A DNA stretch of 64,000 nucleotides. Source: a virus. Its lineage: Duplodnaviria; Heunggongvirae; Uroviricota; Caudoviricetes. Below the pieces are notes generated by a model. That model did not search any database. It was not told the DNA's origin and saw only the letters and a list, made by a program, of their open reading frames with translations. Position 1 is the first letter of the stretch, and every line of letters begins with the position of its first letter. Where the stretch lies: positions 11,687-75,686 of the IMG/VR virus record IMGVR_UViG_3300047564_003701; one strand, written 5' to 3'. Position numbers and translations under genes: made by a program. Of the stretch, positions 1-63,085 are shown piece by piece.

Positions 1-239
1 TCGTTGATTATGTCTGCGTATTGTCCTCTAGGAAAAGGCCATTGTCCATATTTTTCAAGAGCAGCTTCATCTATGTTAACGATATGAACAGGAACTTCTT
101 TTTTAGGTTCGCTGACGATCAATTGATCAAAATATCTTAATCTTACACTTTCAACAAATGCAGGATCAAATAATCTTATTAATACCACTACAGTTAAAGT
201 AACTAGAGCAGTCCAGGGGTTTAAAAACAATTTCTTCAT
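1..239 (-). CDS. N-terminal fragment of a membrane-anchored CHASE2-like sensor domain protein (continues beyond the window start)
   Basis: ATG at 239..237 on the minus strand. The frame MKKLFLNPWTALVTLTVVVLIRLFDPAF...VHIVNIDEAALEKYGQWPFPRGQYADIIN stays open to position 1. It has a hydrophobic N-terminus and a 'IDE.SL...G.WP.PR' stretch typical of CHASE2. It is absent from the ORF track because it has no in-window stop. Confidence 0.4.
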   Translation of the reverse strand, partial: MKKLFLNPWTALVTLTVVVLIRLFDPAFVESVRLRYFDQLIVSEPKKEVPVHIVNIDEAALEKYGQWPFPRGQYADIIN

Positions 240-373
240 AGTAATATATTTACCGTGGAAATACTAAATAATCTTGGGGAGTAACTAGCCTGCAAAGGCT
301 CTATATGTCGTCAGCACGGTGTAAAAACCCGGTATATAGACAAAGATGTGAGACCATAACTTTAAGGTAAATT

Positions 374-1075
374 ATGGAACTCTTCACACTTCAAGCCCTA
401 TGGGCATTTCTCGCTATCGTTTTGATAGACATCGTACTAGCCGGGGATAACGCATTGGTTATCGGAATGGCTGCAAACAAACTACCGCCTGAACTACGTA
501 AGAAAGCAATCTTCTGGGGAACCTTTGGTGCTATCGCTATTCGCTTTTTATCAGTGGCAGCACTGACCTACCTACTATTAATTCCAGGACTTCGAGCCAT
601 CGGTGCTGCGGCGCTGATATGGATTGGTTGGAAACTGGCATTTAACAATGAAGAACATAACGTAGAGGCCAAAGACACCTTCTGGGGTGCGATTGGTACT
701 ATCGTAGTTGCTGATGCTGTTATGGGCATAGATAACGCACTAGGTATTGCTGCTGCGGCAAATGGCAGTTTTATTTTAGTGATTGCTGGATTACTAATCA
801 GTGTGCCAATTATCTTGTTTGGTGCAGGACTGGTTAGTAAGATACTAGAAAAATATCCTGACACAGTTTTTATAGGATCGTTTGTATTGTTTGCTGTGGC
901 AATGTTAATGCTGATGAAAGAACCTCTAATGGCAGCATGGTGGGCAGGATTGGTACCTTGGGCCGCTGCAATTGTACCTTGGGCAGTTGCGTTAGTTATT
1001 ACTGCTGTTCAATACAACAAAGCTCGATTACATCTACACAAGAAGTTCTTGTTTAAACAGGATCACCAAGCATAA
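374..1075 (+). CDS. TerC-family integral membrane protein
   Basis: Multi-pass membrane protein with duplicated GDNAL/IDNALGIA motifs characteristic of the TerC/YjbE family. Confidence 0.65.
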   Translation: MELFTLQALWAFLAIVLIDIVLAGDNALVIGMAANKLPPELRKKAIFWGTFGAIAIRFLSVAALTYLLLIPGLRAIGAAALIWIGWKLAFNNEEHNVEAKDTFWGAIGTIVVADAVMGIDNALGIAAAANGSFILVIAGLLISVPIILFGAGLVSKILEKYPDTVFIGSFVLFAVAMLMLMKEPLMAAWWAGLVPWAAAIVPWAVALVITAVQYNKARLHLHKKFLFKQDHQA

Positions 1076-1352
1076 GTGTAGACTCGTCGCCGACGCCGAT
1101 AATGCAAGCGATTTCCGAAGTCATTTGTAATAGTGTCCAGTTTTTTGTTTTAGAGTTAACAAATAGTGCGAATTTTGTATCGTCTATAGGATTCTTCGCA
1201 GCCCAAATAGGCTTTTCATTATAGTTCTCTATCAAGCTTCTGATCAGTGTCTGTACATTATCGCAGAGCACGGGTTTACGACTTTCAAACGGTTCGGCGT
1301 TGGCTACGCTGTATAAGCAGAATAGGAACGCCACGATTACTGTACGCATCAT
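1053..1352 (-). CDS. small secreted protein, last gene of the curli-like operon
   Basis: N-terminal signal peptide (MMRTVIVAFLFCLYSVANA) and same strand as the csg-like genes. No recognisable domain. Confidence 0.4.
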   Translation of the reverse strand: MMRTVIVAFLFCLYSVANAEPFESRKPVLCDNVQTLIRSLIENYNEKPIWAAKNPIDDTKFALFVNSKTKNWTLLQMTSEIACIIGVGDESTLMLGDPV

Positions 1353-1374
1353 GGCATACTCCTTAAAACAGTAT

Positions 1375-3309
1375 TTATTGCCCTTGTGTTACAGTAATGG
1401 CTGCACAACTGGCCTGAGCACAGTTATGTGTTATAGAGTAAAACTGTTGAGTGCCGCCTGTTTGCGTAGCGGTAATTGAAGTAGCCCCACCGGTCAATGT
1501 AATATTAGCCATATGACCTACAGAGCCAGTCTGTGTAATGTCAACAGTCTTGGTACCGCCGCTGAGAGAAATTTCAGAATAATGATTTCCAGTACCACTT
1601 TGATTTACGGTTAAACTATTTGATGCATTATTCACTGTAGCTAATATACCTTTAGCACCACCGGTTCCGGATTGAGTTAAATTTGTAGTATTGCCATTTC
1701 CAGAAATAGTTAATTCTATATAATTAGTAGTGGTAGCCCCGGATGAAGATTGTGTTATAGTAGTTGTATTATTTGATCCTGTAAGATCAATTTCTGCATA
1801 ATTTTTATTGCCTGTCTGTTGAACTGTGGCAACATTATAGCTTCCTATCTGTTCTACAATAACTCTATTTCCGTTTTGCTGTGACCATATATTGGCTCTA
1901 TTGGCAAATCCTGTATTGGCAGCAAACGCATCTGTAGAGCAAGTTGAACTATTAGGACACGCTGGCGCAGTTGATCCTCCTGTAGTAGGAGCACTCGATC
2001 CAGCGTTAGGTGCGATAGGTCCAAAGGTTTGTCCGTTAAGGGTAGTAGAACCTTGTAAATCGTCGACTAACAAAATAGGACTCAATGCTGTGTCTCCAAG
2101 ATTAAAACTTGAGAATCCTAATATGTAATCTCCGCTTACTGGAACAGTAATGGTCGCTAACTGCCAACCTGTTGATCCATAACTGTCTGTGGCATAGTTT
2201 CCTGTTCCGGGATTGGTAAATCCTAATAATGCATATCTCTTAGTTTCGTTGTTTAACACAGGTATTTTTGTCGGGTCACTAGAATGAATTAAAGTCATAA
2301 TACTTCCATCATTAAATGGTGTATAGTCCGTACTCATATATTGCCAAGCGATGACATATGTTTTACCTGATTCAAGTGCAACAGTTCGTTTAGCCCACGA
2401 AGCATTAGTAGGTGAGCTGTTGCCTCCTAATCCAGTAAGATAATTTCTAATGTTAGTTATTTCTGTTGTAGTTAATCCTAATGAGGTCATAGCAGGATCA
2501 AAATTAGGACTGTCACCACCGGCTTGAATGACCATCATATACGTTCCGTATGGCGTAACTGACCAAGACTTGCCGCCGCCAGGTTGATAATTTGTCATTC
2601 CTTTTGATGTATTAACACCGTCGCCGTTATCGCTCCAGCCTGAGGTTTTTTCTGTGCCTGTACCGTTACTGATAGTCCAGTTAGCAGTAGTTCCTGATTC
2701 AAAACCTAAATTAGGGTTGTTGGTGTTAGGACTTACAGGTCCGCTGGAAGATGTCGGTGTTGATGTTTGAGAACTTGGTGTAACGGTAGCAGTTTGACCT
2801 GAACTCAAAGGAACTGTAGAGTAAGTTGCATCGGCATAGGTGTTGGCCTGAGCGATTGTAGGGTTAAGGGTACCAGTCCAAGACACACCCGATGTTCCAC
2901 TCATACCACTACTACCGCTAAACAGTTGTCCTGTGTTATTGTCACTGCCTACAAAGAAAAAATAGTCAGGACCCATATTAACGATCTTACCGTTACCTAG
3001 TGTAGATTTAACATTGCCTGCGCTGTCATATTGTTTTGCTGTATAAGGATACGAACTGTTTCCACTCAATTCAAACTTTACATAGTCACCAGAAGCCCAT
3101 TGCACTTGACCTGAAGTCCAGGGTATCTTGTAGGCCGTACCTGGCTGTTTGCTATAAATTTGGCAGGTGGTAGTATTCAGACACGAGTTAACATTCCATT
3201 GACTGTCTGCAATTTGATATTGTCCAAATTTGATATCAGTTAGGTCTGCGCGAACTGTCGTAGACAAAAAAATTAAAATAAGAAATAAAAGTTTTTTTAT
3301 CTGTTCCAT
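1375..3309 (-). CDS. large secreted Ser/Thr/Asn/Gly-rich protein with C-terminal curlin-like repeats
   Basis: Signal peptide (MEQIKKLLFLILIFLSTTVRA). The C-terminal ~170 aa is tandem ~22-aa repeats of the form N.TTITQSG.GN / SLTVNQSGTGN / VDITQTGS.GH, matching the curlin repeat pattern (S-x5-Q-x-G-x-x-N). There is a central lectin-like Gly/Trp-rich region. Confidence 0.6.
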   Translation of the reverse strand: MEQIKKLLFLILIFLSTTVRADLTDIKFGQYQIADSQWNVNSCLNTTTCQIYSKQPGTAYKIPWTSGQVQWASGDYVKFELSGNSSYPYTAKQYDSAGNVKSTLGNGKIVNMGPDYFFFVGSDNNTGQLFSGSSGMSGTSGVSWTGTLNPTIAQANTYADATYSTVPLSSGQTATVTPSSQTSTPTSSSGPVSPNTNNPNLGFESGTTANWTISNGTGTEKTSGWSDNGDGVNTSKGMTNYQPGGGKSWSVTPYGTYMMVIQAGGDSPNFDPAMTSLGLTTTEITNIRNYLTGLGGNSSPTNASWAKRTVALESGKTYVIAWQYMSTDYTPFNDGSIMTLIHSSDPTKIPVLNNETKRYALLGFTNPGTGNYATDSYGSTGWQLATITVPVSGDYILGFSSFNLGDTALSPILLVDDLQGSTTLNGQTFGPIAPNAGSSAPTTGGSTAPACPNSSTCSTDAFAANTGFANRANIWSQQNGNRVIVEQIGSYNVATVQQTGNKNYAEIDLTGSNNTTTITQSSSGATTTNYIELTISGNGNTTNLTQSGTGGAKGILATVNNASNSLTVNQSGTGNHYSEISLSGGTKTVDITQTGSVGHMANITLTGGATSITATQTGGTQQFYSITHNCAQASCAAITVTQGQ

Positions 3310-4397
3310 TGTCTTACCGTCACTACGTTACCATTAGCACCGCTACCGACTTGACGTTGACTAACGTCAACATTGTTGACTGAAATGTTATAGGTAGTTG
3401 TGTCAGTAGTTTCTAATGATCTAATGTGTATCACATTACCTCTTAAAGGATCAACGTGTTCGTACCAATTATATCCTTTTTCATTTCCGCAACTGGTAAA
3501 TGGCCAACAAGGATTGCCTGCTGTCTGTTCAGTAGACCCAACCTTTGTTGTTCCTATTTCCCCAGATAGTGCTCTTTGTATATTCCTGTCCGAATTGCCT
3601 TCTCTATCTTTTCGTGCCACTTCGTCATTGTTATCTCTCGCTGCTTTTCTTTCGTCATCGTTAGCACGACTCCTATCTTTTCGTTCTTCTTTCTTTTGAT
3701 CTCTTTCGGCAACAGCTTTAACTACCTGCTCGGGTTTCTTTAATGATCCTTCACCGTAGGCATTCATCACGCTAGGATCAACTTGAACAGGGGGCAAAGG
3801 AGATTCTTGATGACTAACAGCATAGGTAGCTAAAAATGGACTATCCATACTGACTTTTCCTGCAGTAGTAGTTACATCTATAGCACCACATACACAGTTT
3901 CCTGGTAATTCCACCCGTTGTGCATCACGATCGTCTTTACAACTAGGTAATAGTACTACAGTGCTTCTACCAAGTTCGTCTACGGTCATGGCAAAGTCTG
4001 TTCCTCTCACAGCTATGGCGGCTGTTGGAGTTTTTATATTAACGTTCTGAGCAGAATTTTTAGCTATAGCACCCGAAGCCATTCGGACTGTCCCTAACGC
4101 CACTTTCATAGAACTCTTAGAAGCTCCGCCTTTAGGATCATAGACAAAGTCATCTATAATAAGTTTACTGTTTTCAGTTATTTTTGCTGTGCTGTTATCT
4201 GAAAAAGTGATCGTGAGTTTTGTATTTGATCCGACACTGACAGTGTCATTTGATTCTATCACAGAATCTTTCGATGCTTTGATAGATTTACTACCTCTTT
4301 TAATTTCAACGGCTGTGCCCTGGAGCTCAGTTATTTTGCCTATGTTGGCTTGAGCCCCAGATGCAATCAATAATAGAACCAGCCATAAATGTTTCAT
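3297..4397 (-). CDS. secreted FecR-domain protein with highly charged linker and C-terminal curlin-like repeat
   Basis: Signal peptide. 'ITFSDNSTAKITENSKLII...IAVRGTDFAMTV...VVLL' fits the FecR fold signature. KE/RD-rich segment. The C-terminus 'VDVSQRQVGSGANGNVVTVRQWN' resembles a curlin R repeat. Confidence 0.5.
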   Translation of the reverse strand: MKHLWLVLLLIASGAQANIGKITELQGTAVEIKRGSKSIKASKDSVIESNDTVSVGSNTKLTITFSDNSTAKITENSKLIIDDFVYDPKGGASKSSMKVALGTVRMASGAIAKNSAQNVNIKTPTAAIAVRGTDFAMTVDELGRSTVVLLPSCKDDRDAQRVELPGNCVCGAIDVTTTAGKVSMDSPFLATYAVSHQESPLPPVQVDPSVMNAYGEGSLKKPEQVVKAVAERDQKKEERKDRSRANDDERKAARDNNDEVARKDREGNSDRNIQRALSGEIGTTKVGSTEQTAGNPCWPFTSCGNEKGYNWYEHVDPLRGNVIHIRSLETTDTTTYNISVNNVDVSQRQVGSGANGNVVTVRQWNR

Positions 4398-5080
4398 TAG
4401 TTTCCTGTGGTTACAGTTACAGCATTGCTGTTACCAGTTGTGACTATGTTTACTGTTGTATTAACTGATCCGCTCTGTGTCACAGAATGTGTGTTAGAAG
4501 TTCCAGTTACAGCAGCCATTAATGAATGTCCTAGACCTGCACTGGCTCCTGCCATAGAGCTAGTGAATGTATTGCTGTCTCCTAGGATAGTGATACTGCT
4601 GGTAGAATTATTTGTTAATATAGACTGTGTAACAGTATTGTTATCTCCAGTAATACTCAACGTATTTGCAATGCTACTTCCTTTTATTGTGCTAGTAACA
4701 GTATTGCTGTCTCCAGCGATTGTCATAGTGCTAGTTACGTTGGTACAGGCTGTGGTACCATCGCCACAGGTAAAGGTTATTTGATTAGTATCACCTGTGA
4801 CAGTTTTTGTAATCGTATTACCATTACCTACTACAGTATAATCTATGATGTTGCCATCGCCAGTTTGACTGGCTGTTAATGTGTTTGTGCTTCCGGTTAT
4901 TTTACTTTGGTTATTAAGACCGCTGTTTCCTACTCGGTTGGTGCTGCCTACCTGAGTAATTGTTACAGTGTTAGAACTACCTGCTTGTTCTATATAAACT
5001 GTGTTGTTAGCGTATGCTCCTGAACCCCAAAACATAGCCGCCATAATGAAGGCCATTTTACCATAATTATTTTTAATCAT
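4397..5080 (-). CDS. csgA: curlin (CsgA/CsgB-like) amyloid subunit
   Basis: Signal peptide followed by at least 8 imperfect repeats (SNTVTITQVGSTN, TNTLTASQTGDGN, GNTITKTVTGDTN, SNTHSVTQSGSVN ...) with the S/N-x-T-x-T-x-Q-x-G-x-x-N curlin periodicity. Lies immediately downstream of csgG. Confidence 0.6.
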   Translation of the reverse strand: MIKNNYGKMAFIMAAMFWGSGAYANNTVYIEQAGSSNTVTITQVGSTNRVGNSGLNNQSKITGSTNTLTASQTGDGNIIDYTVVGNGNTITKTVTGDTNQITFTCGDGTTACTNVTSTMTIAGDSNTVTSTIKGSSIANTLSITGDNNTVTQSILTNNSTSSITILGDSNTFTSSMAGASAGLGHSLMAAVTGTSNTHSVTQSGSVNTTVNIVTTGNSNAVTVTTGN

Positions 5081-5154
5081 TTTTCGCTCCTTGGTACTGT
5101 TATTGTTATTATTGTACCTTATTTTTTAAAGAATCCAACCCTATTTGGTTCTTT

Positions 5155-6072
5155 TTATTTTGTTTTAACTGATTCTCCTCCAGTATTTTTTCCGTCATCG
5201 GACTTAGGTACTGGGGGTGTCGCTTCGGATTCGATTTTGGATGTGGTGTTTTTTTGAACCAACTCATCTTTTTTCTCCTCTGATTTATAAGACCAATGGC
5301 CTTTCTTTTCTCCCTCACGAATCAATTCTATCACTGCTGCATGAATCGCTAATTGAATAGCCTTATTCATTGATTCGTTCGTGGCAGATCCTGTTTCTAA
5401 TTCTAATGCTTTAGTGCCTGCTTCATAAAATCTTAAAACACCAGCCTTGTCTTGGAAACTGTAAACACTCTTAGAAATATTAACTACAGTTAGTACTTCA
5501 CCGGTAGATACTGATACTGCTCTAAGACTAATTGTAACTTCGTCTTGTCTGTATTCTGTGCTAGCCCCAATGCCTAATAATCTAGCTCCGGAACCACCAC
5601 TCATTGTGTTACTATCATAGCCTATGATACCACCTTCGAGTATCATTCCAGCGAACAACATAGGTGGTAAAGGTTGTGCTTTATCACCTTGATACAGTTC
5701 TCTCATCTGACGTATTAGTTGTCTTTCTTTGATAAGATTATCTAATCCGCCTCTTTCGAGAACTTTAAACCATTTACCGCTGCCTACTTCCTGTAGACTT
5801 TTCACAAGGTATGCATCTGCTCCTTGAGTCACAGCAGAGCTTAGACTTGCGATATTTTGACTAGCCTTACGTTGGCCAGTCATATCTCTAAAATTATAGA
5901 CTGCTACAGGTATAGATCCGCTTTGAGGTTCTTTTAGATTTGATTCAGCTTTAAGAGCTGGTTTTGTTACTTTGGGATCATCGAAGCTACGAACAGCATT
6001 ACCTACTGTTCCGCAACCTGCTAAAAATAATGCCAAAGCCAGGGGTGTTAATTTAATTAAGGTGCTAGCCAT
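5155..6072 (-). CDS. csgG: curli secretion channel lipoprotein CsgG
   Basis: Lipobox LAGCGT. Long collinear similarity to E. coli CsgG (VAVYNFRDMTGQ..., IKERQLIRQ..., MILEGGIIGYDSNTMSGGSGARLLGIGASTEYRQDEVTISLRAVSVSTGEVL). Has an extra K/E/S/P-rich C-terminal tail. Confidence 0.8.
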   Translation of the reverse strand: MASTLIKLTPLALALFLAGCGTVGNAVRSFDDPKVTKPALKAESNLKEPQSGSIPVAVYNFRDMTGQRKASQNIASLSSAVTQGADAYLVKSLQEVGSGKWFKVLERGGLDNLIKERQLIRQMRELYQGDKAQPLPPMLFAGMILEGGIIGYDSNTMSGGSGARLLGIGASTEYRQDEVTISLRAVSVSTGEVLTVVNISKSVYSFQDKAGVLRFYEAGTKALELETGSATNESMNKAIQLAIHAAVIELIREGEKKGHWSYKSEEKKDELVQKNTTSKIESEATPPVPKSDDGKNTGGESVKTK

Positions 6073-6515
6073 CCGAAATCTCCAATTGGTACTGTCATTG
6101 TTGTTACATTTCCGTTTTCATCTCTTATGGTAATCTCTATCAGACTACCTGCCTTGGTGTAGGTAATTGTACCACCGTTGAACGCAAATGTTCCGGATGC
6201 TTGGGTGCCTTGCCCCTCAAATAATTTTTCAGTGATTTGTCTTGCTAATTCGTTATAAACACGACTTTCTAAGTTTGCAACGAATTTGGCCATAGTCGTA
6301 TTTTTAGCATCTTGTTCTGCTTTTAAAGCATCTGCTTTTTTTTCTGCAGCAATAGCTAATTTACGACTGAGTTCTTGACCGTAAATGGTCAATGCATGAC
6401 TGGAATATCCTACTCCAGAAAATGATGGACTGTTGAATTGATGGACAAGTTCAGCAGACTGACTTGCCGTCGATAAGGATAAAAATATCCCTAAAGATAC
6501 TAACGTTTTCTTCAT
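6057..6515 (-). CDS. csgF: curli assembly component CsgF
   Basis: Signal peptide, then 'AELVHQFNSPSFSGVGYSS', which matches the conserved mature N-terminus of CsgF (TFQFRNPNFGG) that plugs the CsgG pore. Length of ~150 aa. Overlaps the csgG start, consistent with translational coupling. Confidence 0.65.
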   Translation of the reverse strand: MKKTLVSLGIFLSLSTASQSAELVHQFNSPSFSGVGYSSHALTIYGQELSRKLAIAAEKKADALKAEQDAKNTTMAKFVANLESRVYNELARQITEKLFEGQGTQASGTFAFNGGTITYTKAGSLIEITIRDENGNVTTMTVPIGDFGWLAP

Positions 6516-6573
6516 CGGTTCGCTCCCGGTTACTAATTATTTAGTGAACCGGCCTAGAAAATTATAGTACGAG

Positions 6574-6942
6574 TTAAACCAACAGAATATACGCAATACC
6601 TAGATAGGTAAATTGATGAGCGAATTGATCTAAACCAAATTGATTCCAGAATTGTGGTTTAGTGTTGTCTTTGCATCCGTATTTTACTTTTACAAAATCT
6701 ATTATGTAGTGTAAAATACCTTCTGAAAATGCAACAATTAAAATTGTAAAACCGGATAGAGGATGGATGAAATTAAATGCCAATAGAGCTACTAATGTAT
6801 AGGCGACATGATCACTGCTGTGACTAATTCCAACAGGATCTAACCAAACTCCTTTTTTTACGGTCTGTAAATAAGTTTGGACTTTAAAATCTGCGTACCA
6901 GTGTTTAACCTGCAGAAATAATAAAAGTAGTAGTATTTCCAT
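6574..6942 (-). CDS. hypothetical small membrane protein
   Basis: Three or four hydrophobic helices. First gene of the minus-strand block upstream of csgF. Confidence 0.4.
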   Translation of the reverse strand: MEILLLLLFLQVKHWYADFKVQTYLQTVKKGVWLDPVGISHSSDHVAYTLVALLAFNFIHPLSGFTILIVAFSEGILHYIIDFVKVKYGCKDNTKPQFWNQFGLDQFAHQFTYLGIAYILLV

Positions 6943-6967
6943 TTATGCTATTTATATAGCGTTTTTA

Positions 6968-7645
6968 CTAAATTTCAGGAAAAAGGCAGTCCTGTATGAA
7001 AATCCTTACATCTTCCTGATTTAAACCTAAACTAGCCATAACTTTAGGAGTATGTGGATTCATTTTTTGATTTTGAGCGTAATAGTTTTGCTCAAAAGTA
7101 GCATCTGCTACTTTATTATTGGTTTCTCCTACTGTTTCTACGTAATGGTTTATTAGTATATGTGCTAGACTTTCAATTTGAGATAATTCAGACTCGTCGC
7201 TGACATTTCCAGCAGCTACCATATTTGAACTAAAAATACGCTGTGCCCAATCTGGAAGATCTCGTTTTTTGATCCAATCGTATCTACTGACTTCTTCGGC
7301 GAAGTATTGATTCATAGGGTGATTACGATCTGTGGTTGGACTATAATCTATGAAACAGCCTGTGATCTTATTTTTTCCTGCGATAACATCAAAACCAAAA
7401 ATGGGCGCCGGGTTATGGATATGAGGAAATACACAACAGTGCATCATCCAGAGGCCCTTTGTGGATCGGGCATCGACTACGTCAATGTGAGCTCTACGAT
7501 AATTACCACTAGTCCATACCCTGTTTACCCAACCCGGCTGATTGAAACGTTCCATCCCTGGTTCAAATGATTCGATCCCAGATTCGTTAAATTTTTTAGT
7601 TAATAGATTCTGTATCTCTATCAGTTTCGACCATACCGCAGACAT
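6968..7645 (-). CDS. pebS: ferredoxin-dependent bilin reductase (PebS/PebA/PcyA family), phage PebS-like
   Basis: Sequence pattern of the FDBR family (WTSGNYRRAHIDVVD..., HCCVFPHIHNPAPIFGFDVIAG...). Sits one gene away from a heme oxygenase, as in cyanophage pebS-ho1 pairs. Confidence 0.65.
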   Translation of the reverse strand: MSAVWSKLIEIQNLLTKKFNESGIESFEPGMERFNQPGWVNRVWTSGNYRRAHIDVVDARSTKGLWMMHCCVFPHIHNPAPIFGFDVIAGKNKITGCFIDYSPTTDRNHPMNQYFAEEVSRYDWIKKRDLPDWAQRIFSSNMVAAGNVSDESELSQIESLAHILINHYVETVGETNNKVADATFEQNYYAQNQKMNPHTPKVMASLGLNQEDVRIFIQDCLFPEI

Positions 7646-8932
7646 TTAGTACCTATATGTTTCTAATTTATAAGGACCATCGACTTCAACATTAATGTAT
7701 GCAGCCTGATTAACAGTTAAATTGGTTAACGTGGCACCAATCTGATCTAAATGCAATCTGGCAACCTTCTCATCTAACTTTTTAGGAAGTAGATATAGTT
7801 TTCCAATTTCGTATTTGTCAGGATTATTGAATAAATCGATCTGTGCTAATGCTTGATTAGTAAAACTGTTACTCATAACATAGCTAGGGTGACCGGTGGC
7901 ACAACCTAGATTTACCAGTCTGCCTTTGGCTAGAACTATAATTCTTTTTCCGTCAGGAAAAATTACGTGATCGACCTGCGGTTTGATTTCATCCCATACG
8001 CAGTTTTTTAAACTAGCAATATCAATTTCACTGTCAAAATGTCCTATGTTGCACACAATAGAATTGTTTTTCATTCTAGACATATGATTGTAAGTTATGA
8101 CATCTATGTTTCCTGTGGCTGTGACAAAAATGTCTGCTTTGTCTGCTGCATACTCCATGGTCACTACTTTATAACCTTCCATAGCAGCCTGCAACGCACA
8201 GATAGGATCAACTTCTGTAATCCATACTTGGGCCGACAGAGCTCGGAGAGACTGTGCAGAACCTTTGCCTACATCTCCATAGCCACATACTACCGCTATC
8301 TTGCCTGCTATCATTACATCAGTGGCTCTCTTGATTGAGTCAACTAGACTTTCGCGGCAACCGTATAAGTTATCGAATTTTGATTTCGTTACACTATCGT
8401 TGACATTGATAGCTCTGAGATGCAGTGTTCCTTTAGAAATCCTCTCCAACAGTTTATGGATGCCGGTTGTGGTTTCTTCAGTTACGCCTATGATATCTTT
8501 TAATAAATCGGGATACTTGTCGTGTACAAAGGCTGTTAGATCGTGACCGTCGTCTAAAAGCATATTTGGTTTCCAGTTATTTGGTCCTGATATTGTTTGT
8601 TCTATACACCACCAATATTCTTCTTCGGTCTCGCCTTTCCAAGCGAATACTGGAATACCTTTAGAAGCCAATGCTGCCGCTGCATGATCTTGTGTTGAAA
8701 AGATATTACAACTAGACCATCTTACCTCTGCTCCTAAATCTATAAGAGTTTCTATTAGAACAGCAGTCTGCACAGTCATATGTAGACTACCTGCGATTCT
8801 TGCTCCCTTTAGAGGAAACTTATTTTTATATTCTTTTTTAATCGCCATTAATCCGGGCATTTCTGTTTCGGCGATCGCTATTTCTTTTCTTCCCCAGTCA
8901 GCTAACTGTATGTCTGCGATTTTATAATCCAT
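7646..8932 (-). CDS. ahcY: S-adenosyl-L-homocysteine hydrolase
   Basis: Full-length match to AhcY, including [30 protein letters not shown] and the NAD-binding [15 protein letters not shown]. Confidence 0.9.
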
Positions 8933-8933
8933 T

Positions 8934-9473
8934 TTATTCCTTATTCAAATCTTGCATAATTTTTATTGCCCATTCAAAGGCTACACGAGCTTCGTCACCT
9001 AAGTCATCTGTTAGCTCTGCACGTATCTGTTCCTTGAGTTTTTCTGGATCTTTAAACTTGTAAAAACGTCCTTGTCCAGGTACACGTTTGGCAATCATTT
9101 GGCCGCCATATAGATCTCCCATATGACGACAATAAAGATGTGCCTTGATAAGATGTTTTCTTTCTGGGTCATTGATCAGTTCTAACAGATAATTATGGTA
9201 TCCGATAGTAGACGGTAACCATTTAAAATCGTGATCTTTTCCAGCTAGTTCGATAAAATCTTGATAGATCGGCCAGGTCCTTTCAATGTCCGGGAGGCTG
9301 GCAAAATTACCTAGTATTTTGTTACCCATTTCGATAGGTTGATAAACCAAAACCATTTGCCATAGGTAGTTGGCGTAGTCCTCTTTAGATATAGATCCGC
9401 TTAAAAGTTTTTTAGCAAACTCTGTACGTTCTGCATCTGAATGTAAATCTTTAGTTATTTCTCGTAAGCTCAT
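8934..9473 (-). CDS. ho1: heme oxygenase
   Basis: [24 protein letters not shown]... and [22 protein letters not shown] align with the HO-1 proximal and distal helix motifs (LKEATKEVHTQAEN..., [20 protein letters not shown]). Confidence 0.75.
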
Positions 9474-9483
9474 AGTGTGTTAT

Positions 9484-9750
9484 TTACACCTTAGAAATTT
9501 TCAACATTAATAATAAGAGATCTTTTTCACTATCGAATTTAATGAAAAAGGTATTGCTATTGTTTTTTTGATACTGCCATTTGATACCTAATTTTCCAAA
9601 TGACTGTTCTATTGTTCTAATGAAATTTAATCTTCCTTGTTTTCCTAGAGTAGCTGCTGGAGTTCGATAATCTTTGATAAGTGCCCAGTGACCGAATCTT
9701 TTTGACCCTACATTCTGATAAGAAATTATTTTATAATTTTCCTGGATCAT
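9484..9750 (-). CDS. hypothetical protein
   Basis: ORF with a 4-nt ATGA overlap to the clpS start. No recognisable domain. Confidence 0.35.
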   Translation of the reverse strand: MIQENYKIISYQNVGSKRFGHWALIKDYRTPAATLGKQGRLNFIRTIEQSFGKLGIKWQYQKNNSNTFFIKFDSEKDLLLLMLKISKV

Positions 9751-10046
9751 TCTCTTTCTAAATTAATCTGTAACGGAAATCCGTTCAATCTAGAAAGTTT
9801 AGTAGATTCTACTGATTTGTGCTCAGCTATTTCGTAATTAAAAACACCTACTACAGCGGAGCCAGTGTTGTGTATTTCTAGAGTGAGATCTTTAGCAGTA
9901 TCTTCTCTATGTTTAAAAATCGAAGTTAACAACTCAATGACGAATTCCATAGGTGTTTGATCGTCATTTAAAAATACTACTTTCCATAAAGATGGAGGTT
10001 GCAGATTAACTTTAACTTTTTCTTCTGTTTTGATTTCTGTGCTCAT
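9747..10046 (-). CDS. clpS: ATP-dependent Clp protease adaptor ClpS
   Basis: PPSLWKVVFLNDDQTPMEFVIELL...HNTGSAVVGVF matches the ClpS core ([24 protein letters not shown]). Confidence 0.8.
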   Translation of the reverse strand: MSTEIKTEEKVKVNLQPPSLWKVVFLNDDQTPMEFVIELLTSIFKHREDTAKDLTLEIHNTGSAVVGVFNYEIAEHKSVESTKLSRLNGFPLQINLERE

Positions 10047-10088
10047 TAGTTGCTCCGGTAATAGTAGGGGATTTCTCCCCCACTAATA

Positions 10089-10526
10089 TTACTTAACCTC
10101 TACGATATCGATTACCTTAGGTTTGGCAGACTCTGGAATATTTCTTACCAATTTGATAGAAAGCATACCATTTTGTGTTTCTGCACCAACTACCTCAATA
10201 TATTCTGCTAAAGGAAATTCCTTAACAAAATCACGAGTAGCTAGACCTCGATGTATGTATACCATATCAGTGCTTTCATTTGATGTTTGACTTTCGCCTT
10301 TGATGATCAGCACGTTGTCTTCTACGGTTACATTGATTTCGTCTTTCTTGAAACCAGTAACAGCGATTTGAATCTCATACTGATTCTCACCAGTTTTGAG
10401 AATGTTGTGTGGGGGATAATTGTTAGAAACGCTGTTAGCGAATCGTCTTTCCATTTGGTCAAACATAGTGTCGAAACCAATAAGTGCTCTATTAATGGCG
10501 TCTAGTCTTGCTAGTTGATTGTTCAT
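10089..10526 (-). CDS. small heat-shock protein (Hsp20/alpha-crystallin family)
   Basis: IbpA/Hsp20 layout: NYPPHNI...YEIQIAVTGFKKDEINVTVEDNVLIIKGE...IHRGLATRDFVKEFPL...GMLSIKL. Confidence 0.85.
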   Translation of the reverse strand: MNNQLARLDAINRALIGFDTMFDQMERRFANSVSNNYPPHNILKTGENQYEIQIAVTGFKKDEINVTVEDNVLIIKGESQTSNESTDMVYIHRGLATRDFVKEFPLAEYIEVVGAETQNGMLSIKLVRNIPESAKPKVIDIVEVK

Positions 10527-10530
10527 AATA

Positions 10531-10569
10531 ATCTCCTTATAAAGTAAGATGAACTGGGCTCTATGCCCT
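10531..10569 (-). promoter_or_regulatory. conserved ~40-nt upstream element (copy 1, 5' of hsp20)
   Basis: 20-nt block atctccttataaagtaagat plus 14-nt block gggctctatgccct. A near-identical element lies 5' of dnaK at 12671..12710. It includes the SD AAGGAG and a GGGC..GCCC mini-hairpin. Confidence 0.45.
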
Positions 10570-10570
10570 A

Positions 10571-10762
10571 TTACTGACCCTCACCCGAGTGATCTGTAAT
10601 TCTGTTTTCTGTTTCTTGAAGAGTTTCTTCTGCTATAAGTTTAGAAACTTCTTCAATTACAGATTGTTCTTGTTTTCTAAAGACAGTATCCCAATTAGAA
10701 TCGAAAGTTTTTTTATCGACGCTATATGGACGCGGTCTACTACCTTTACCTGCCTCAGCCAT
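10571..10762 (-). CDS. hypothetical small protein
   Basis: 63-aa ORF 3 nt downstream of dnaK. It is not DnaJ or GrpE-like. Confidence 0.35.
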   Translation of the reverse strand: MAEAGKGSRPRPYSVDKKTFDSNWDTVFRKQEQSVIEEVSKLIAEETLQETENRITDHSGEGQ

Positions 10763-10764
10763 TT

Positions 10765-12666
10765 TTATTCCTTCTTTTCTGTAAACGTAGCATCTACTAC
10801 GTTATCATCGGATGGATTATTGCCGGTTGCTTCTTGAGCTGGCTGACTTTCTTTAGCCTGCTTTTTTTCTAACAGAGTTTTCATTGCCGGATAAACTTTG
10901 TTAAGTTCTTCTGTGATCTTATCTTTGTCGTCGCCCTTTGTGGCTTCTCCAACAGCATTGATAACATCCTCAAGTTGCTTAACTTCATCTTCAGTAAGTT
11001 CGCTACGATACTCTTCAAGATCTTTTTTAACTTCGTGCATCTGAGCTTCAGCTGAATTCTTAGTATCGATTAGTTCTCTAGCTTTCTTATCTGCTTCGGC
11101 ATTAATCTCAGCATCTCGAATCATTTGTTCAATTTGTTCTTTGCTTAGACCGGAATCAGACTTGATGGTGATCTTATTTTCTTTGCCTGTATTTTTATCT
11201 TTGGCAGAGATATTCATGATGCCATTGGCATCAACATCGAAAGTAACTTCGATCTGCGGAAGTCCTCTACGGGCCGGAGCAATGCCTTCTAGATTGAATT
11301 CGCCTAACAGTTTATTGTGTTGAACGAGTTCTCTTTCTCCCTGGACCACTTTGATAGTCACGGCAGGCTGATTATCTTCAGCCGTGCTGAATGTCTGACT
11401 TGCTTTGGTAGGAATCGTAGTGTTCTTTTGAACCAGTTTAGTCATTACTCCGCCTAACGTTTCGATACCTAAACTCAGAGGAGTAACGTCAAGTAACAAT
11501 ACGTCATTGCGATCGCCGCCCAACACAGCACCTTGGATAGCAGCACCAACTGCTACTGCTTCGTCTGGGTTTACATCTTTGCGTGGTGCCTTACCGAAAA
11601 GTTTCTCAACTTCTTCTTGCACTTTAGGCATACGTGTCTGACCGCCAACAAGAATAACTTCGTCAATGTCAGCAGCAGTAACACCTGCGTCTTGCATAGC
11701 GATGCGGCAAGGAGCCAGTGAACGATTAATAAGATCTTCGACCAGGCTTTCTAATTTTGCCTTTGTTAATTTTACTACTAGATGCTTAGGACCACTTGCA
11801 TCGGCTGTGATGTAAGGTAAGTTAACTTCTGTCTGTGTGCTGTTTGATAATTCAATTTTGGCTTTTTCAGCAGAGTCTTTTAAACGCTGAAGAGCTAATA
11901 CATCTTTAGTTAAATCAACGCCTTGTTCTTTCTTGAACTCCTCGACCAAGTAGTCCATAATGCGTTGATCGAAGTCTTCACCACCTAGGAATGTGTCGCC
12001 ATTCGTTGACAATACTTCAATTTGTTTGTCGCCATCTACATTCGCGATTTCAATGATCGATACATCGAAAGTACCGCCACCAAGATCGTAAACAGCAATT
12101 TTTCTGTCAGCTTTATCTTGCTTATCAACACCATAGGCCAATGCAGCCGCTGTTGGTTCGTTGATGATACGCAGAACTTCTAAACCTGCGATCTGTCCCG
12201 CATCTTTGGTTGCTTGACGTTGTTGATCGTTAAAGTAAGCAGGCACAGTGATCACTGCTTTAGTTACTTCTTGACCAAGATAATCTTCTGCGGTCTTTTT
12301 CATTTTACGAAGAACTTCTGCAGAAATCTGTGGAGGTGCCAATTCTTTGCCCTGTGCTCTAACCCATGCATCGCCGTTTTTACTTTCCATAATTTCGTAT
12401 GGCATCAGGTCGATGTCTTTTTGTACAGCCTGTTCTTTAAACTTACGTCCAATCAATCGCTTGGCTGCATAAATTGTATTTTTGGGGTTAGTGATCGACT
12501 GTCTTTTCGCCGATGCACCTACAAGGATTTCGTCGTTGGCATAGGCAACGATACTAGGTGTAGTACGAGTACCTTCTGAATTTTCAATAACTTTGGAAGT
12601 TCCATTCTCGACGATAGCCACGCAGGAATTGGTGGTGCCGAGGTCAATACCGATGATCTTAGACAT
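10765..12666 (-). CDS. dnaK: molecular chaperone DnaK (Hsp70)
   Basis: Full-length Hsp70: [23 protein letters not shown], the substrate-binding domain and a C-terminal lid. Confidence 0.95.
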
Positions 12667-12670
12667 ACAT

Positions 12671-12710
12671 ATCTCCTTATAAAGTAAGATCTATTTGGGC
12701 TCTATGCCCT
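12671..12710 (-). promoter_or_regulatory. conserved ~40-nt upstream element (copy 2, 5' of dnaK)
   Basis: Same 20-nt and 14-nt blocks as at 10531..10569, with a 6-nt instead of 5-nt spacer. Confidence 0.45.
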
Positions 12711-12744
12711 GTAAATTGCCCTATGGTACAATTTACGATTTTAT

Positions 12745-13329
12745 TTATCTCTGGTTAGCTAGCGGCATAAACAATTTACCGTTTAGCCCGGAACTAGCAG
12801 TTCTTAGAGATTTAAAAACATTCTGTACTCCTACAGCCTGATTCCACGCATCTTCTAAGGCGTGATGCTTGAGTACCGGAGGACGCTTTGGGTCTATTCC
12901 GAGATCAAATAATGTGCGGGTATCACGAACTTCCCAAAATGACCAAGGAACAGCTTTACCAATTTTACGAAATAAATTTTCGCAGATAATCACATCAAAG
13001 CCGGCACCGTGACTCCAAACACGTTTGGCGCCCCAACAGAACTTATAAAGTTGAGTCATTGCATCAACAATATCAATCCTGTTGTTAGGATCAAACGCTT
13101 CGTCTTGAGCAGCCTGACTTTGACTTGCCCACCAATCGAGTGTTGCCTGACTAACTGTACAACCTAAACGATCACAACTGTCTAGATCAACCCTAACGTA
13201 AAATTTTTCGCAGGTAGGATCTTTTAAATCATCTCCGAAAGGATCAAATTTTACTGCTCCAATAGTTAAAATAGTAGCAGTTGGGAGAACATCTAGAGTC
13301 TCCATATCAATCATTATATCTGTAAGCAT
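12745..13329 (-). CDS. DEDDh-type 3'-5' exonuclease (DnaQ/RNase T-like)
   Basis: Exo I motif MIDMETLD and a C-terminal H....D motif (WSHGAGFDV). Confidence 0.6.
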   Translation of the reverse strand: MLTDIMIDMETLDVLPTATILTIGAVKFDPFGDDLKDPTCEKFYVRVDLDSCDRLGCTVSQATLDWWASQSQAAQDEAFDPNNRIDIVDAMTQLYKFCWGAKRVWSHGAGFDVIICENLFRKIGKAVPWSFWEVRDTRTLFDLGIDPKRPPVLKHHALEDAWNQAVGVQNVFKSLRTASSGLNGKLFMPLANQR

Positions 13330-13366
13330 TATATTATTATAAATTCTTTCTATTAAGATGTCAATG

Positions 13367-14386
13367 TTATTTTACAAATATATCGTTGATCTGTCTGTTC
13401 ACACGAATAAATGTGGTACATTTGGATAATTGTTTTAGACTAGGAGCTCCGACATAGGTACAGGTACTGCGTAAACCACCTAAAAGATCTAATACAGTAT
13501 TCTGCACCGGACCTTTGTATTTTACTTCTACAGTGCGTCCTTCTGAACTACGATATTCAGCAACACCTCCACTGTGTTTATTCATAGCAGTGTCTGAACT
13601 CATTCCGTAAAATGTTACTTTGCCGTCTTTGATTTCGCCACCGCCTTCGTCGTGTCCTGACAGCATACCGCCTAGCATTACAAAGTCCGCGCCAGCGCCG
13701 AAAGCCTTAGCAACATCACCAGGGCAAACACATCCACCATCAGCAATAATATGAGCGCCAAGACCGTGAGCGGCATCGGCACACTCAATGATAGCACTAA
13801 GCTGTGGGTAGCCCACACCAGTTTGGATACGAGTAGTACAAACGCTACCAGGGCCAATGCCCACTTTAATAATATCTGCGCCACGTAAAATTAACTCCTG
13901 TGTCATATCTGCGGTAACCACATTACCGGCGATAATAGTTATGTGAGGATATGCTTGTCTAACTTTAGAAACATATTCTCCAAAATGTTCACTGTATCCG
14001 TTAGCTACATCGATACAGACGAAATGAATTTCTGGATAAGAATTTACTATCTGTCTTAGTTTAAGAAAATCTTTGTCACTGGTTCCTGTGCTGACGGCAA
14101 AATAATTTCCGCCAAACTTACCTGTTAGATCAAAAAGATCGTCTTCAGCATAGCTCTTAACCAGACAAGTAAACATCTGATGTTTATACAATTTTCGAGC
14201 CATATCTATTGTACCCACACCGTCCATATTGGAAGCCATGATAGGTACACCGGTCCATTCAAAGCCACTGTGTCTAAATTTATATGTTCTTGTAAGATCT
14301 ACTTCTTTGCGACTACTTAGAGTAGAACGCTTTGGTCTGATGAGCACATCACGGAAGTCTAGCTTGACTTCATCTTCGATACGCAT
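13367..14386 (-). CDS. guaC: GMP reductase
   Basis: N-terminus [26 protein letters not shown] is almost identical to E. coli GuaC. IMPDH/GMPR TIM-barrel motifs ([11 protein letters not shown]). Confidence 0.9.
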
Positions 14387-14398
14387 TTGATACCTTTC

Positions 14399-14626
14399 TT
14401 AGAAAAGTTTTGGAGGAAGTTGTTGCGAACGTAGTTGTTTGCGCCAACGTGCTTTCGCAGCACCTTTCTTACGCTTACGTTCTGTGGTTGGTTTTTCGTA
14501 GAATTCTTTTTTACGTAGGGTATCTAGAATTCCCGATTCTTCTACTTTTTTCTTAAAACGTCTTAGAGCCTGATTGATGTTTTCATGCTCTTTTACAAAT
14601 ACTTTTGAACCTTTGATAATATCCAT
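14399..14626 (-). CDS. rpsU: 30S ribosomal protein S21
   Basis: [35 protein letters not shown] matches bS21 (ALRRFKRSCEKAG...[13 protein letters not shown]). Confidence 0.85.
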
Positions 14627-14630
14627 ATTT

Positions 14631-15029
14631 TTATAATGTCGAATTTAAAATTTTTGTAACATCGTCTGCATTGTATATATTCCTGTTATTGATCGGCGAT
14701 AAATTTTTTAATGTTCCAAAATAATAAGAATATTTTTGTGCGGACATATAACCTATTATAATATCATTTTCACTATCTGCATTAAAAATTATTATATCAC
14801 TTTTGTGTTTTTTATCCAATAACCAATCTACAGAATCTCCTGATCTCCAAATATACGAAACAATGCTACTGAATCCATCTGACTGTGCTAAAGAATCAGA
14901 AACTATTTGATTTTGGTCTGTATTGAGATCTACTAGTAATAATCTTAGACCGTCTACTTGGATGTCATCTGGGTCTGTAACTAATATAACACTGTCTGTC
15001 ATTTTTTGCTTTCTTGTATCCGACTCCAA
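14631..15029 (-). CDS. hypothetical protein
   Basis: 132-aa ORF. Alternating acidic and hydrophobic beta-strand pattern. No confident domain. Confidence 0.4.
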
Positions 15030-16555
15030 ATGGTATTTTCATTTTGTTCGGCATTTTGTTTATATCCGCTCAGAGTTCCTTGGATTTCTTCACCTGTTGA
15101 AGGCCTTCCCTCTCCATCCAAGTCACTACCTTTTTTTTTAGAAGTTTGCTTTTCAAGTTGTTCTTTGGCCCACTTGGCTGCTTCTATGGCAGCTTCGTCT
15201 TCTGCATTAACGAAGTCTGGTTTAGCTTCAAGATATTCTTCCCAGGGTAATCTATCGATCACACCTTTTTCAAAAAGTTTTCTTTGCATTTTTAAAGAAC
15301 TTTCAGGATTTGCAGATTTCCATCTCGCCATTGCTTCTTTTTCTGAATGGGCAGCGTTCTCTAAAATTTCGTTATCTTCTATTTCTTTTTCTTCTTCGAC
15401 TGCTTTTTCAGCTTCTTCTAACATCTTGTTCCACTTGTCAAGATTGGATTCTTTCTCTTCTAGAGATTCGATTTCTTCTTCGGGTTCTGGTTTCTTATCT
15501 TCCCAGGGCTTACCTTCCGGATATACGTCGTTATCATCGGCTAGAAATTTAAAATCATCGTCTTTGGTTTCTTCTTTGATTTCTGCAACAGGAAACGGCC
15601 AGGGAGAATGTACATAACTACTTTCTTCTACTGGCTCAGACGCACTATTCAATTCGTGTATGTCGCTGGCCATTTCCTCGCCAGACAGGTCATTTAATGT
15701 TTTTTCTGAATTCTGTTCTTCTTCTTGTTTACGGAACCATTGAAAACTATATTGGCTTGCCAACAACAAAATAACTGCCAGTGGGTCGAATACCGAAACA
15801 ATAATGATGATGACCCAAGTGACAGCTTTCTCTAGGATGTTAGCATCAGGATTGTCACCGTAGATAAAATTAGCAATATATTTTATTGGTCCAACTTCGG
15901 CTTCGACTTTGCGGACTTCTGCGGCGATAGGGGCTCGTTCTTCGTTGAGTTTAGCAATAGTACTCTGTGACCTAGAAATATCGTTTTGGAGTCTAGTTCG
16001 TTCTGCTTGTTGTTGTCTGCGGATTTGAACTGCACGTTCTGCACCGCGGTCGTCGGTGCTGCGACTGAGCCTTTCATTAACTTGAGAATCCATTTGAGTA
16101 AGTGCTTTACGAGCCGCATCGATATTCTCCCGTTCAGTTTTAATCTTTTCGTCATAGACGGCGATCTTAGCCATTACATCGCCCGAAACTAAACCAGCAT
16201 CACTGTGTGCTTTGCTTAAGAATCCAAAGATACCCATACTGGTGATGAGCATCAGAATAGCAATGGCTATTAATAGATATGTTTTTAAAAACCTAGGGGC
16301 TATCGACCAATTTTGTTTTAGCCAAACTGTAGCAGATAATTTGCCTACTTCTAATACCACTCCCATAACCATAATCGGTATGGCAGCGGCAGCAAAGATG
16401 CTGACTAGGCCTGCTACAGAATAATAAATGGCCACGGCGGAAATTGATAATCCGCTGAGTAATGCCGACCAGGCTATAATTTTATCGCTAATATTGGTTT
16501 TCATTGAATTAATATTTATCGACCAACCATCTCCAATTATTATGCGCATTTTCAA
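14999..16555 (-). CDS. hypothetical membrane protein with coiled-coil and highly acidic C-terminal region
   Basis: N-terminal transmembrane helices, a central heptad-rich segment and an E/D/K-rich tail. The antisense Ser-rich ORFs inside it are probably spurious. Confidence 0.4.
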   Translation of the reverse strand: MKMRIIIGDGWSININSMKTNISDKIIAWSALLSGLSISAVAIYYSVAGLVSIFAAAAIPIMVMGVVLEVGKLSATVWLKQNWSIAPRFLKTYLLIAIAILMLITSMGIFGFLSKAHSDAGLVSGDVMAKIAVYDEKIKTERENIDAARKALTQMDSQVNERLSRSTDDRGAERAVQIRRQQQAERTRLQNDISRSQSTIAKLNEERAPIAAEVRKVEAEVGPIKYIANFIYGDNPDANILEKAVTWVIIIIVSVFDPLAVILLLASQYSFQWFRKQEEEQNSEKTLNDLSGEEMASDIHELNSASEPVEESSYVHSPWPFPVAEIKEETKDDDFKFLADDNDVYPEGKPWEDKKPEPEEEIESLEEKESNLDKWNKMLEEAEKAVEEEKEIEDNEILENAAHSEKEAMARWKSANPESSLKMQRKLFEKGVIDRLPWEEYLEAKPDFVNAEDEAAIEAAKWAKEQLEKQTSKKKGSDLDGEGRPSTGEEIQGTLSGYKQNAEQNENTIWSRIQESKK

Positions 16556-22685: not shown

Positions 22686-23243
22686 TTAGAGAGTCTCGCC
22701 ACCAACTGTACGGTTACAAGCACATAGCTCGCCAGTTTGTAACGCATCCAATACACGAAGTGTTTCTTCTGGTGAGCGACCAACGTTCAAGTTGTTGACG
22801 GTAACGTGTTGGATAACGTTGTCTGGATCAACAATGAATGTGGCACGAAGTGCAGCACCTGCTGGAGCATAGAACACGCCGAGCTGATTAATCAGGCTTA
22901 GATCTTCCATGGTGTTGTCATTCCAACGCTGCGTATCTGCAAACTGTGTATGCGTGATCTTTTGTAGATCTGGGTGTGCCTTTTGCCAGCTGACTTTACA
23001 GAACTCGTTGTCTGTTGAACCTGTGAGCAGTACTGCATCACGGTCGGCAAAGTCGCCGGCTAGTTTGTCGTAGGCTACAATTTCTGTAGGGCAAACGAAT
23101 GTAAAGTCCTTTGGGTAGTAAACGATTACTTTCCACTTACCTTCAAAACTTTGGTCTGTAATGTCAAAGAACGCATCTTCTGGTTGACCAGGCTTGACAC
23201 CTGTTACTGCGAATTTTTCTAATTTATCACCAACTGTTTTCAT
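22686..23243 (-). CDS. peroxiredoxin (AhpC/TSA family)
   Basis: FTFVCPTEI peroxidatic Cys motif. Start placed at the internal ATG at 23243, which has an AAGGAGAAG SD. The longer ORF in the track is probably an upstream artefact. Confidence 0.8.
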   Translation of the reverse strand: MKTVGDKLEKFAVTGVKPGQPEDAFFDITDQSFEGKWKVIVYYPKDFTFVCPTEIVAYDKLAGDFADRDAVLLTGSTDNEFCKVSWQKAHPDLQKITHTQFADTQRWNDNTMEDLSLINQLGVFYAPAGAALRATFIVDPDNVIQHVTVNNLNVGRSPEETLRVLDALQTGELCACNRTVGGETL

Positions 23244-23740: not shown

Positions 23741-23748
23741 AATAACTT

Positions 23749-63082: not shown

Positions 63083-63085
63083 AGC

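Follow-up and report, generated by a model that had tools for sequence, protein, structure and literature searches.

Curli-type (type VIII) secretion modules became known in marine phages through work spanning 2013-2022. Zaragoza-Solas et al. found the curli cluster to be widespread in pelagimyophages and proposed that it serves for 'sibling capture' or as a solute pore (Zaragoza-Solas et al., 2020; PMC7029224). Tominaga et al. noted that a T4-like virus, placed with marine Bacteroidetes as its hosts, has curli genes (Tominaga et al., 2020; PMC7198788), and Buchholz et al. proposed that a gated CsgGF pore times lysis (Buchholz et al., 2022; PMC9004378). Wittmers et al. detected a module of CsgF, CsgG, CsgA/B, FecR, a second CsgA/B and a cyclase at all 65 ocean virome stations, found transcripts of the marine module in metatranscriptomes, and proposed superinfection exclusion, aggregation and import as its functions (Wittmers et al., 2022; PMC9599517). 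Here we describe a further example from another large-phage lineage, carried by IMG/VR record IMGVR_UViG_3300047564_003701 (Caudoviricetes), of which a stretch of 64,000 nucleotides (positions 11,687 to 75,686; hereafter the window) was analysed. Its minus strand holds, at 1053-6515, what is identified from its sequence as an intact, virus-encoded curli-type module. The initial annotation of the window took such a system to be undescribed, which does not hold: besides its treatment in the papers of 2020-2022, the module is annotated with the same synteny in two cultured phages, Pelagibacter phage HTVC008M (gp014-019) and Methylophilales phage Melnitz (gp99-104), and the functions it suggested (aggregation, superinfection exclusion, export through the pore) are already in print. 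What is new is a lineage without T4-type core genes, predicted exchangeable glycan-binding heads on the second curlin protein, and a pairing of FecR with CHASE2 that matches a bacterial sensor pairing.

The closest described systems are those of the cultured phages. A tblastn search with the CsgG of the window against GenBank phages matched HTVC008M and four Melnitz isolates at 45-48% identity. In HTVC008M (NC_020484), gp014-gp019 encode CsgF, CsgG, curlin, FecR protein, second curlin and CHASE2-cyclase in the same order as in the window, with 48% identity for CsgG, 42% for CsgF, 47% for the FecR domain and 38% for the cyclase. The second curlin of HTVC008M has a lectin-type PA14 head, whereas that of the window has an N-domain and a predicted carbohydrate-binding-module (CBM)-like sandwich, so that only the curlin tail can be aligned. 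Unlike the window, HTVC008M has neither p99, a small secreted protein, nor a TerC-family gene separating its second curlin from the cyclase. It belongs to the T4-like myophages of the sea, while the window lacks T4-type core genes as judged by comparison with Melnitz. Melnitz (MZ577097), a marine phage infecting OM43, carries the same syntenic module, CHASE2-cyclase included, at gp99-gp104, with module proteins 30-46% identical to those of the window; it also has a transfer-messenger RNA (tmRNA), an Hsp20 gene and a weak p99 homologue, which lies about 5 kb outside the module.

The module of HTVC023P-type podoviruses and pelagimyophages (PMC9599517) is the same, with a second CsgA/B frequent and CsgE absent. 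In the podoviruses it is preceded by a histidine kinase, whereas no histidine kinase lies immediately upstream of the module in the window. That paper makes no mention of PA14, lectin, carbohydrate-binding heads, adhesin or freshwater lineages, in contrast to the predicted CBM-like head on the second curlin described here. Bacterial curli operons (E. coli csgBAC/csgDEFG and the alphaproteobacterial csg loci) share with the window CsgG, CsgF and curlin subunits with Sec signals. Among bacterial CsgG proteins, the nearest (40-52% identity) come mostly from Alphaproteobacteria, in agreement with PMC7029224. CsgE, CsgC and CsgD of the bacterial systems are not in the module of the window, and its FecR and CHASE2-cyclase genes are not found near genuine bacterial csgG.

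The lineage itself appears distinct from the T4-like pelagimyophage/Kyanoviridae lineage. A tblastn comparison of all open reading frames (ORFs) of the window with the complete Melnitz genome matched no T4-type core gene, 64 kb of the present genome having been seen; beyond the curli module, the cyclase and p99, the only matches were Hsp20, a cell-wall hydrolase, ribonucleotide-reductase genes and a PDDEXK nuclease. A DNA-level search of positions 1-25000 against GenBank phages gave no match, hence there is no close cultured relative. The module is nonetheless common in metagenomes. A CsgG scan of IMG/VR returned 14 loci with identities of 62-86%, the contigs reaching 138 and 358 kb, and tblastn of the neighbouring genes gave the order DnaK-Hsp20-heme oxygenase-bilin reductase-(DUF3307)-CsgF-CsgG-curlin-FecR-curlin2-(p99)-(TerC)-cyclase; the contigs that carry related modules measure 138-393 kb. 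Sample names and IMG identifiers may point to lake metagenomes. Exact copies of the FecR protein occur in 66 index blocks of the contigs searched and on at least 32 contigs. Public metagenomes hold more than 2,280 homologues of the 644-aa second curlin protein and more than 5,600 of the FecR protein.

The six co-oriented, partly overlapping ORFs of the module (csgF, csgG, curlin, FecR, 644-aa and small-protein genes) are all present at the positions first given for them, and all six products begin with a basic-hydrophobic segment resembling a signal peptide, as read from the sequence. The csgF homologue (6057-6515, minus strand, 152 aa) matches Pfam CsgF (PF10614) over its full length (residues 8-143, E 2.1e-17). 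After a Sec signal peptide, its mature N-terminus reads ELVHQFNSPSFSG and contains the plug motif F-x-x-P-x-F-x-G. The pore-plugging N-terminus recognized in the initial annotation is well founded, since the phage homologues and E. coli K-12 CsgF (from NC_000913) all have F27, P30, F32 and G34 of 'FNSPSFSG'. A sequence search with this CsgF against the Protein Data Bank (PDB) gave no direct match to any CsgF chain. The protein is 100% identical across six independent assemblies.

The csgG homologue (5155-6072, minus strand, 305 aa) overlaps csgF by 16 nucleotides. It matches Pfam CsgG (PF03783) with E 5.4e-52 and the solved E. coli CsgG (PDB 6lqh/3x2r) with E about 1e-46 over residues 12-273. 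The lipobox noted earlier is present as L-A-G-C at residues 17-20 (Cys20), and the protein ends in a low-complexity tail of 45 aa. From these features the product is predicted to be an outer-membrane lipoprotein channel. In four related loci, CsgG is about 100 residues longer (L009, 10001-11212; L012, 9970-11208; L003; L011), the extension being C-terminal and resembling a bacterial SH3-type domain.

The gene that follows (4397-5080, minus strand, 227 aa) is probably that of the major fibre subunit, CsgA/B-like in its sequence features. Pfam scores a single Curlin_rpt in it (25.1 bits, E 1.8e-5; cut-off 20.7 bits). By eye, the signal peptide is followed at residues 25-227 by 14 segments led by G-x-x-N, or about 17 strand-length units, which would give roughly 8-9 strand-turn-strand rungs. 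The early count of at least 8 repeats is thus plausible from the segments seen by eye, while Pfam recovers only one of them. The composition is rich in Thr (23%), Ser (13%), Asn (13%) and Gly (11%). A profile of the family matches the solved Pontibacter korlensis curli subunit 8c50 (CsgA) with E 3e-5, and orthologues are present as HTVC008M gp016 and Melnitz gp101.

The second curlin-repeat protein (1375-3309, minus strand, 644 aa) had been described as a secreted protein joining a lectin-like domain to C-terminal curlin repeats, a description upheld by both profile and model. Its C-terminal Curlin_rpt match reaches 36.5 bits. The structure model, built with 35 homologues (predicted local distance difference test score, pLDDT, 66.5), consists of a signal peptide, a beta-rich N-domain at 22-158, a Ser/Thr/Pro linker, a beta-sandwich at 200-440, a second linker and a curlin beta-solenoid of 14 strands and 7 rungs at 480-644. 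The modelled solenoid matches the fold of solved CsgA structures, and the sandwich is predicted to be a CBM-like jelly roll. In UniProt/BFVD, the model is matched by 'Curlin associated' and 'PA14 domain-containing' proteins of uncultured Caudovirales (best 54% identity, E 2e-33). The cysteines form short local pairs (CX5C, CX6C and CX4C), which may be compatible with export as an unfolded chain.

Relatives of this protein share the curlin tail and differ in their heads. The head is F5/8 type C in five of the related loci (L006, L008, L009, L010 and L013), PA14 in HTVC008M gp018 and PA14 with GLEYA in P0065, suggesting that the second curlin protein carries interchangeable, predicted glycan-binding heads. 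Variation is also seen between near-identical strains. Compared with L017-L022, the 644-aa gene of the window shows 4.3-4.6% nucleotide differences, against about 1% in neighbouring genes, and a length difference of two codons. The differences are mostly synonymous: synonymous divergence (dS) is 0.16, three to ten times the 0.015-0.05 of the neighbours, and the ratio of nonsynonymous to synonymous divergence (dN/dS) is 0.055. The combination of high dS with low dN/dS suggests allele replacement by recombination under purifying selection. Every gene of the module has a dN/dS of 0-0.18, and the CsgF and CsgG proteins are identical between strains, indicating that the module genes are intact and under purifying selection.

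Between the two curlin genes lies that of a secreted FecR-domain protein (3297-4397, minus strand, 366 aa; Pfam FecR PF04773, E 4.4e-12). The protein has a signal peptide, a FecR domain at about 20-210, a linker rich in K, E, R and D at 215-290, and a conserved Cys-containing C-terminal region with the pattern NPCWPF..CGNEKG.NWY...RGN.I.IR...TTYNIS.N..D...VG.G.N.VTVRQWNR, conserved down to pelagiphage homologues. It was first annotated as ending in a curlin-like repeat; the FecR domain is secure, and the repeat is the less certain part. Pfam detects no curlin repeat at this C-terminus, and a first, badly built motif matrix gave no signal there. With an N-anchored matrix made from the operon's own curlin repeats, the best two matches fall at 341-348 and 357-364 (P about 0.02 against shuffles), within a curlin-like strand-turn-strand at 341-364. 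The last strands may thus bear a weak resemblance to a curlin rung. An AlphaFold2 model of the protein (pLDDT 47) was too poor to use.

The extent first given for the module, 1053-6515, was incomplete, a conserved gene having been overlooked. At 239-1 on the minus strand begins a CHASE2 and adenylate/guanylate cyclase gene, of which the first 79 codons are seen before it runs off the left edge of the window. Their translation is identical to the N-terminus of the full-length cyclase (683 aa; Pfam CHASE2 4e-35, Guanylate_cyc 3e-20) that lies beyond TerC in L017, a contig 98.3% identical to positions 1-14397 of the window. The same CHASE2 and cyclase architecture is found in HTVC008M, Melnitz and L045, and wherever the sequence of a related locus extends far enough, a homologous cyclase lies downstream of the module. 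By this conservation, the CHASE2-cyclase is assigned as the last gene of the phage module.

The pairing of FecR with CHASE2 is constant across the phage lineages, in all loci with enough sequence. It has a counterpart in a biofilm-regulating operon of Burkholderia, where a secreted FecR-domain protein is encoded beside a CHASE2 sensor (PMC5192318). As in the phage module, a secreted or periplasmic FecR protein is there the neighbour of a membrane protein with an extracytoplasmic CHASE2 domain; the output domain is a histidine kinase and the FecR protein has LysM in Burkholderia, whereas the phage module has a nucleotide cyclase and a FecR protein ending in the curlin-like motif. By analogy, the FecR protein and the CHASE2-cyclase are most likely a periplasmic or envelope sensor pair. 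Among 30 csgG genome loci retrieved, neither gene was found within 10 kb of csgG except in L045 (RGCF01000015.1), a 46.6-kb contig of a 'Bacteroidetes bacterium' metagenome-assembled genome (MAG) with a complete phage-type module at 9503-16032, including FecR, lectin-curlin and CHASE2-cyclase genes. This contig is probably that of a phage binned with a bacterium, or possibly a clue to the host. A bacterial origin of the FecR/cyclase association was considered and rejected, as L045 is the only such case and is itself phage-like.

The genes are closely packed. Besides the overlap of csgF and csgG, the stop of the curlin gene and the start of the FecR gene have 1 nucleotide in common, and the FecR gene overlaps the 644-aa gene by 13 nucleotides, an arrangement that points to co-expression. 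Over positions 1-7200, promoter-like sites were no commoner than in shuffles, and the 10 terminator-like sites (shuffle mean 4.8, standard deviation 2.3) gave no usable operon signal. Nine of them are on the plus strand, and the sole minus-strand site (2169-2152) lies within the 644-aa gene.

These features are best accommodated, in our view, by a phage fibre system, a curlin fibre with glycan-binding heads together with a FecR/CHASE2-cyclase sensor pair, a reading that we hold to be reasonably probable. During infection, the host Sec system would export the module proteins; CsgG would make a channel in the outer membrane, and CsgF would cap it on the outside. The 227-aa curlin would leave the cell unfolded and polymerise into a beta-solenoid fibre on the cell surface, which the 644-aa protein would join or nucleate through its curlin tail while displaying its glycan-binding head. 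The infected cell would thereby become sticky for particular polysaccharides, leading to aggregation, to attachment, or to a mesh that shields it against other phages. The FecR protein and the CHASE2-cyclase would couple envelope events to cyclic-nucleotide signalling. More tentatively, and with rather low confidence, the second curlin protein could be a fibre-anchored modular adhesin, whose tail docks and whose head sets the target, with the FecR protein reporting the status of the fibre or of secretion to the CHASE2-cyclase; the two would then be an envelope sensor, supplied by the virus, through which cyclic-nucleotide levels in the host are set. Neither the modular adhesin nor the FecR-cyclase fibre sensor appears in the phage-curli papers PMC7029224, PMC9004378 and PMC9599517.

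Several points weigh against such a fibre system. Aligned by hhalign, the family of the 227-aa protein is not significantly similar to E. coli CsgA, and its canonical curlin-repeat match is confined to the N-terminus. Lectin-type domains of about 440 residues may not be able to pass the roughly 1-nm CsgG channel, and the role of the FecR protein is read from its gene neighbourhood only. A CsgE-like adaptor was not found among the nine products scanned by Pfam. The constriction of E. coli CsgG is formed by Y51, N55 and F56, in the numbering of the 2014 CsgG structures, and the residues aligned to these in the phage protein are Ser, Ser and Leu. Leu77 is invariant within the phage homologue set; the Y51/N55/F56 constriction belongs to the E. 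coli protein and need not be shared by all members of the CsgG family. Fibres have been shown experimentally for no phage module, and cells infected with Melnitz showed no clumping (Buchholz et al., PMC9004378).

The missing CsgE gate, the altered constriction and the Melnitz cultures speak at the same time for a different explanation, in which the CsgG/CsgF channel is the core of the module and has been repurposed as an outer-membrane pore. It would time lysis by depolarising or permeabilising the envelope, or let solutes pass, and the curlins would be accessory plugs or regulators. This is also in keeping with the conservation of csgF and csgG, which exceeds that of the other module genes (strains differ by 0-0.4% at the nucleotide level), and with the import pore proposed in PMC7029224 and PMC9599517. 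A pore, however, leaves unexplained why two secreted curlins are kept under purifying selection in every lineage, why the second carries exchangeable glycan-binding domains, and why CsgF retains the motif that couples the pore to fibre assembly. Two secreted curlin proteins speak for a full fibre system and not for a pore alone, and since binding heads make sense only outside the cell, their exchange favours extracellular binding. We regard the pore explanation as unlikely.

A further explanation keeps the fibres and assigns them another purpose. The fibres and lectin-curlins would mainly shield the infected cell, by masking receptors or by a mesh that blocks superinfection, and would not serve aggregation or attachment. 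Superinfection exclusion of this kind was proposed in PMC9599517, and glycans on the surface of the host itself could be ligands of the lectin heads. Variability and recombination are highest in the head domain, as expected if it tracks variable surface polysaccharides. The same features, however, would be expected just as much of adhesion to other cells or particles, and sequence cannot separate the two purposes; shielding as the main purpose seems to us quite improbable.

The remaining explanation, that the curli genes are bacterial DNA misassembled onto phage DNA or that the whole window is bacterial, draws on host-like genes in the window (DnaK, an enzyme of the inosine monophosphate dehydrogenase (IMPDH) family, S-adenosylhomocysteine hydrolase, TerC and an aminotransferase) and on the binning of L045 in a 'Bacteroidetes' MAG, and is extremely improbable, as both junctions of the module recur in the 14 IMG/VR contigs and in six near-identical assemblies from different samples, cultured phages carry the same module, and no genuine bacterial csgG locus exceeds 52% identity or has FecR or cyclase nearby. 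The six assemblies are independent and come from different samples of ENA and JGI; their identity to positions 1-14397 of the window, both flanks included, is 97.6-98.5%. Guanine-plus-cytosine (GC) content stays at 0.36-0.42 through the module region with no break at 1 kb or 6.9 kb, the two places where a discontinuity was first named as a sign of chimerism, and a chimera was rejected on this evenness together with synteny in 20 independent contigs. That the surroundings are viral, as first annotated, is further borne out by the phage-type genes of the window, which encode a virion structural protein (phrog_1645), a head-maturation protease and a tail spike with Mtd_N and beta-helix domains. 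The window also encodes a DNA ligase, a ribonucleotide reductase and a DNA methylase, and many ORFs belong to no family.

The sixth product of the module, p99 (1053-1352, minus strand, 99 aa), has two conserved cysteines and no Pfam family. It had been listed as a small secreted protein of the operon; its start does resemble a signal peptide, and its membership of the module is uncertain, for it is not constant in the relatives. Roughly half of the related loci have it after their second curlin gene, and others lack it. It was considered as an analogue of CsgE or CsgC and rejected as such, with hhalign probabilities of 0.1% against E. coli CsgE and 0.2% against CsgC, and it shows no similarity to any PDB chain. 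On the opposite strand, between the module and the cyclase, lies a gene for a TerC-family membrane protein (374-1075, plus strand; Pfam PF03741, E 8e-41). TerC is found at this position only in the close relatives of the window and in L008 and L014, and is absent there in HTVC008M and Melnitz; from this distribution it is judged a neighbour and not a conserved part of the module.

Upstream of csgF lie genes for a DUF3307 protein, a bilin reductase and an S-adenosylhomocysteine hydrolase. The ferredoxin-dependent bilin reductase (6968-7645) and a heme oxygenase (8934-9473), both on the minus strand, are kept beside the module in nearly all related loci. The S-adenosylhomocysteine hydrolase gene inserted between them (7646-8932, minus strand) is found at this site only in the near-identical strains of the window. 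Beyond these, a minus-strand chaperone cluster at 9747-12666 encodes DnaK (633 aa), Hsp20 (145 aa) and ClpS (99 aa). This cluster is syntenic with the curli module in most of the 14 IMG/VR relatives, 10 of which have DnaK and 12 Hsp20. E. coli DnaK can keep CsgA unfolded, and by analogy a link of the cluster to the handling of curlin subunits before export is conceivable.

Several features lie elsewhere in the window. A permuted, two-piece tmRNA gene at 23383-23790 (minus strand) scores 104.5 bits with Rfam beta_tmRNA and 105.5 bits with tmRNA_permuted, and ARAGORN predicts an unusually long tag ending in ALAA; this may hint at a betaproteobacterial-type host. The tail-spike-like protein (29490-31070, minus strand; PHROG tail spike) combines an N-terminal Mtd_N (major tropism determinant) domain with a pectate-lyase-type beta-helix. 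Further host-like genes encode an IMPDH/GMP-reductase family protein (13367-14386, minus strand), a peroxiredoxin (22686-23423, minus strand), a class I/II aminotransferase (51185-52390, plus strand) and an SPFH/Band 7 protein (60785-61579, plus strand). In the last 1 kb (63000-64000), GC content climbs from about 0.41 to 0.50-0.55, and an AlgH-like (DUF179) gene lies there at 63086-63655, for which no named close relative was found. This gene occurs with the same neighbours (radical SAM, DNA ligase and methylase) on other metagenome contigs. An assembly join at the GC-rich right end (63-64 kb) was rejected, the same gene neighbours recurring in another assembly.

Phage curli modules are abundant in aquatic viromes, and the module is found here also in a separate, widespread lineage of large phages. 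That its six-part architecture has been retained in three or more types of phage speaks for selection on the function of the module as a whole. The module itself repeats published work, and the points to carry forward are the exchangeable lectin heads and the FecR-CHASE2 pairing. The heads offer a testable handle on the stickiness of infected planktonic cells. If infected cells are indeed made sticky, this would bear on aggregation, particle attachment and carbon export.

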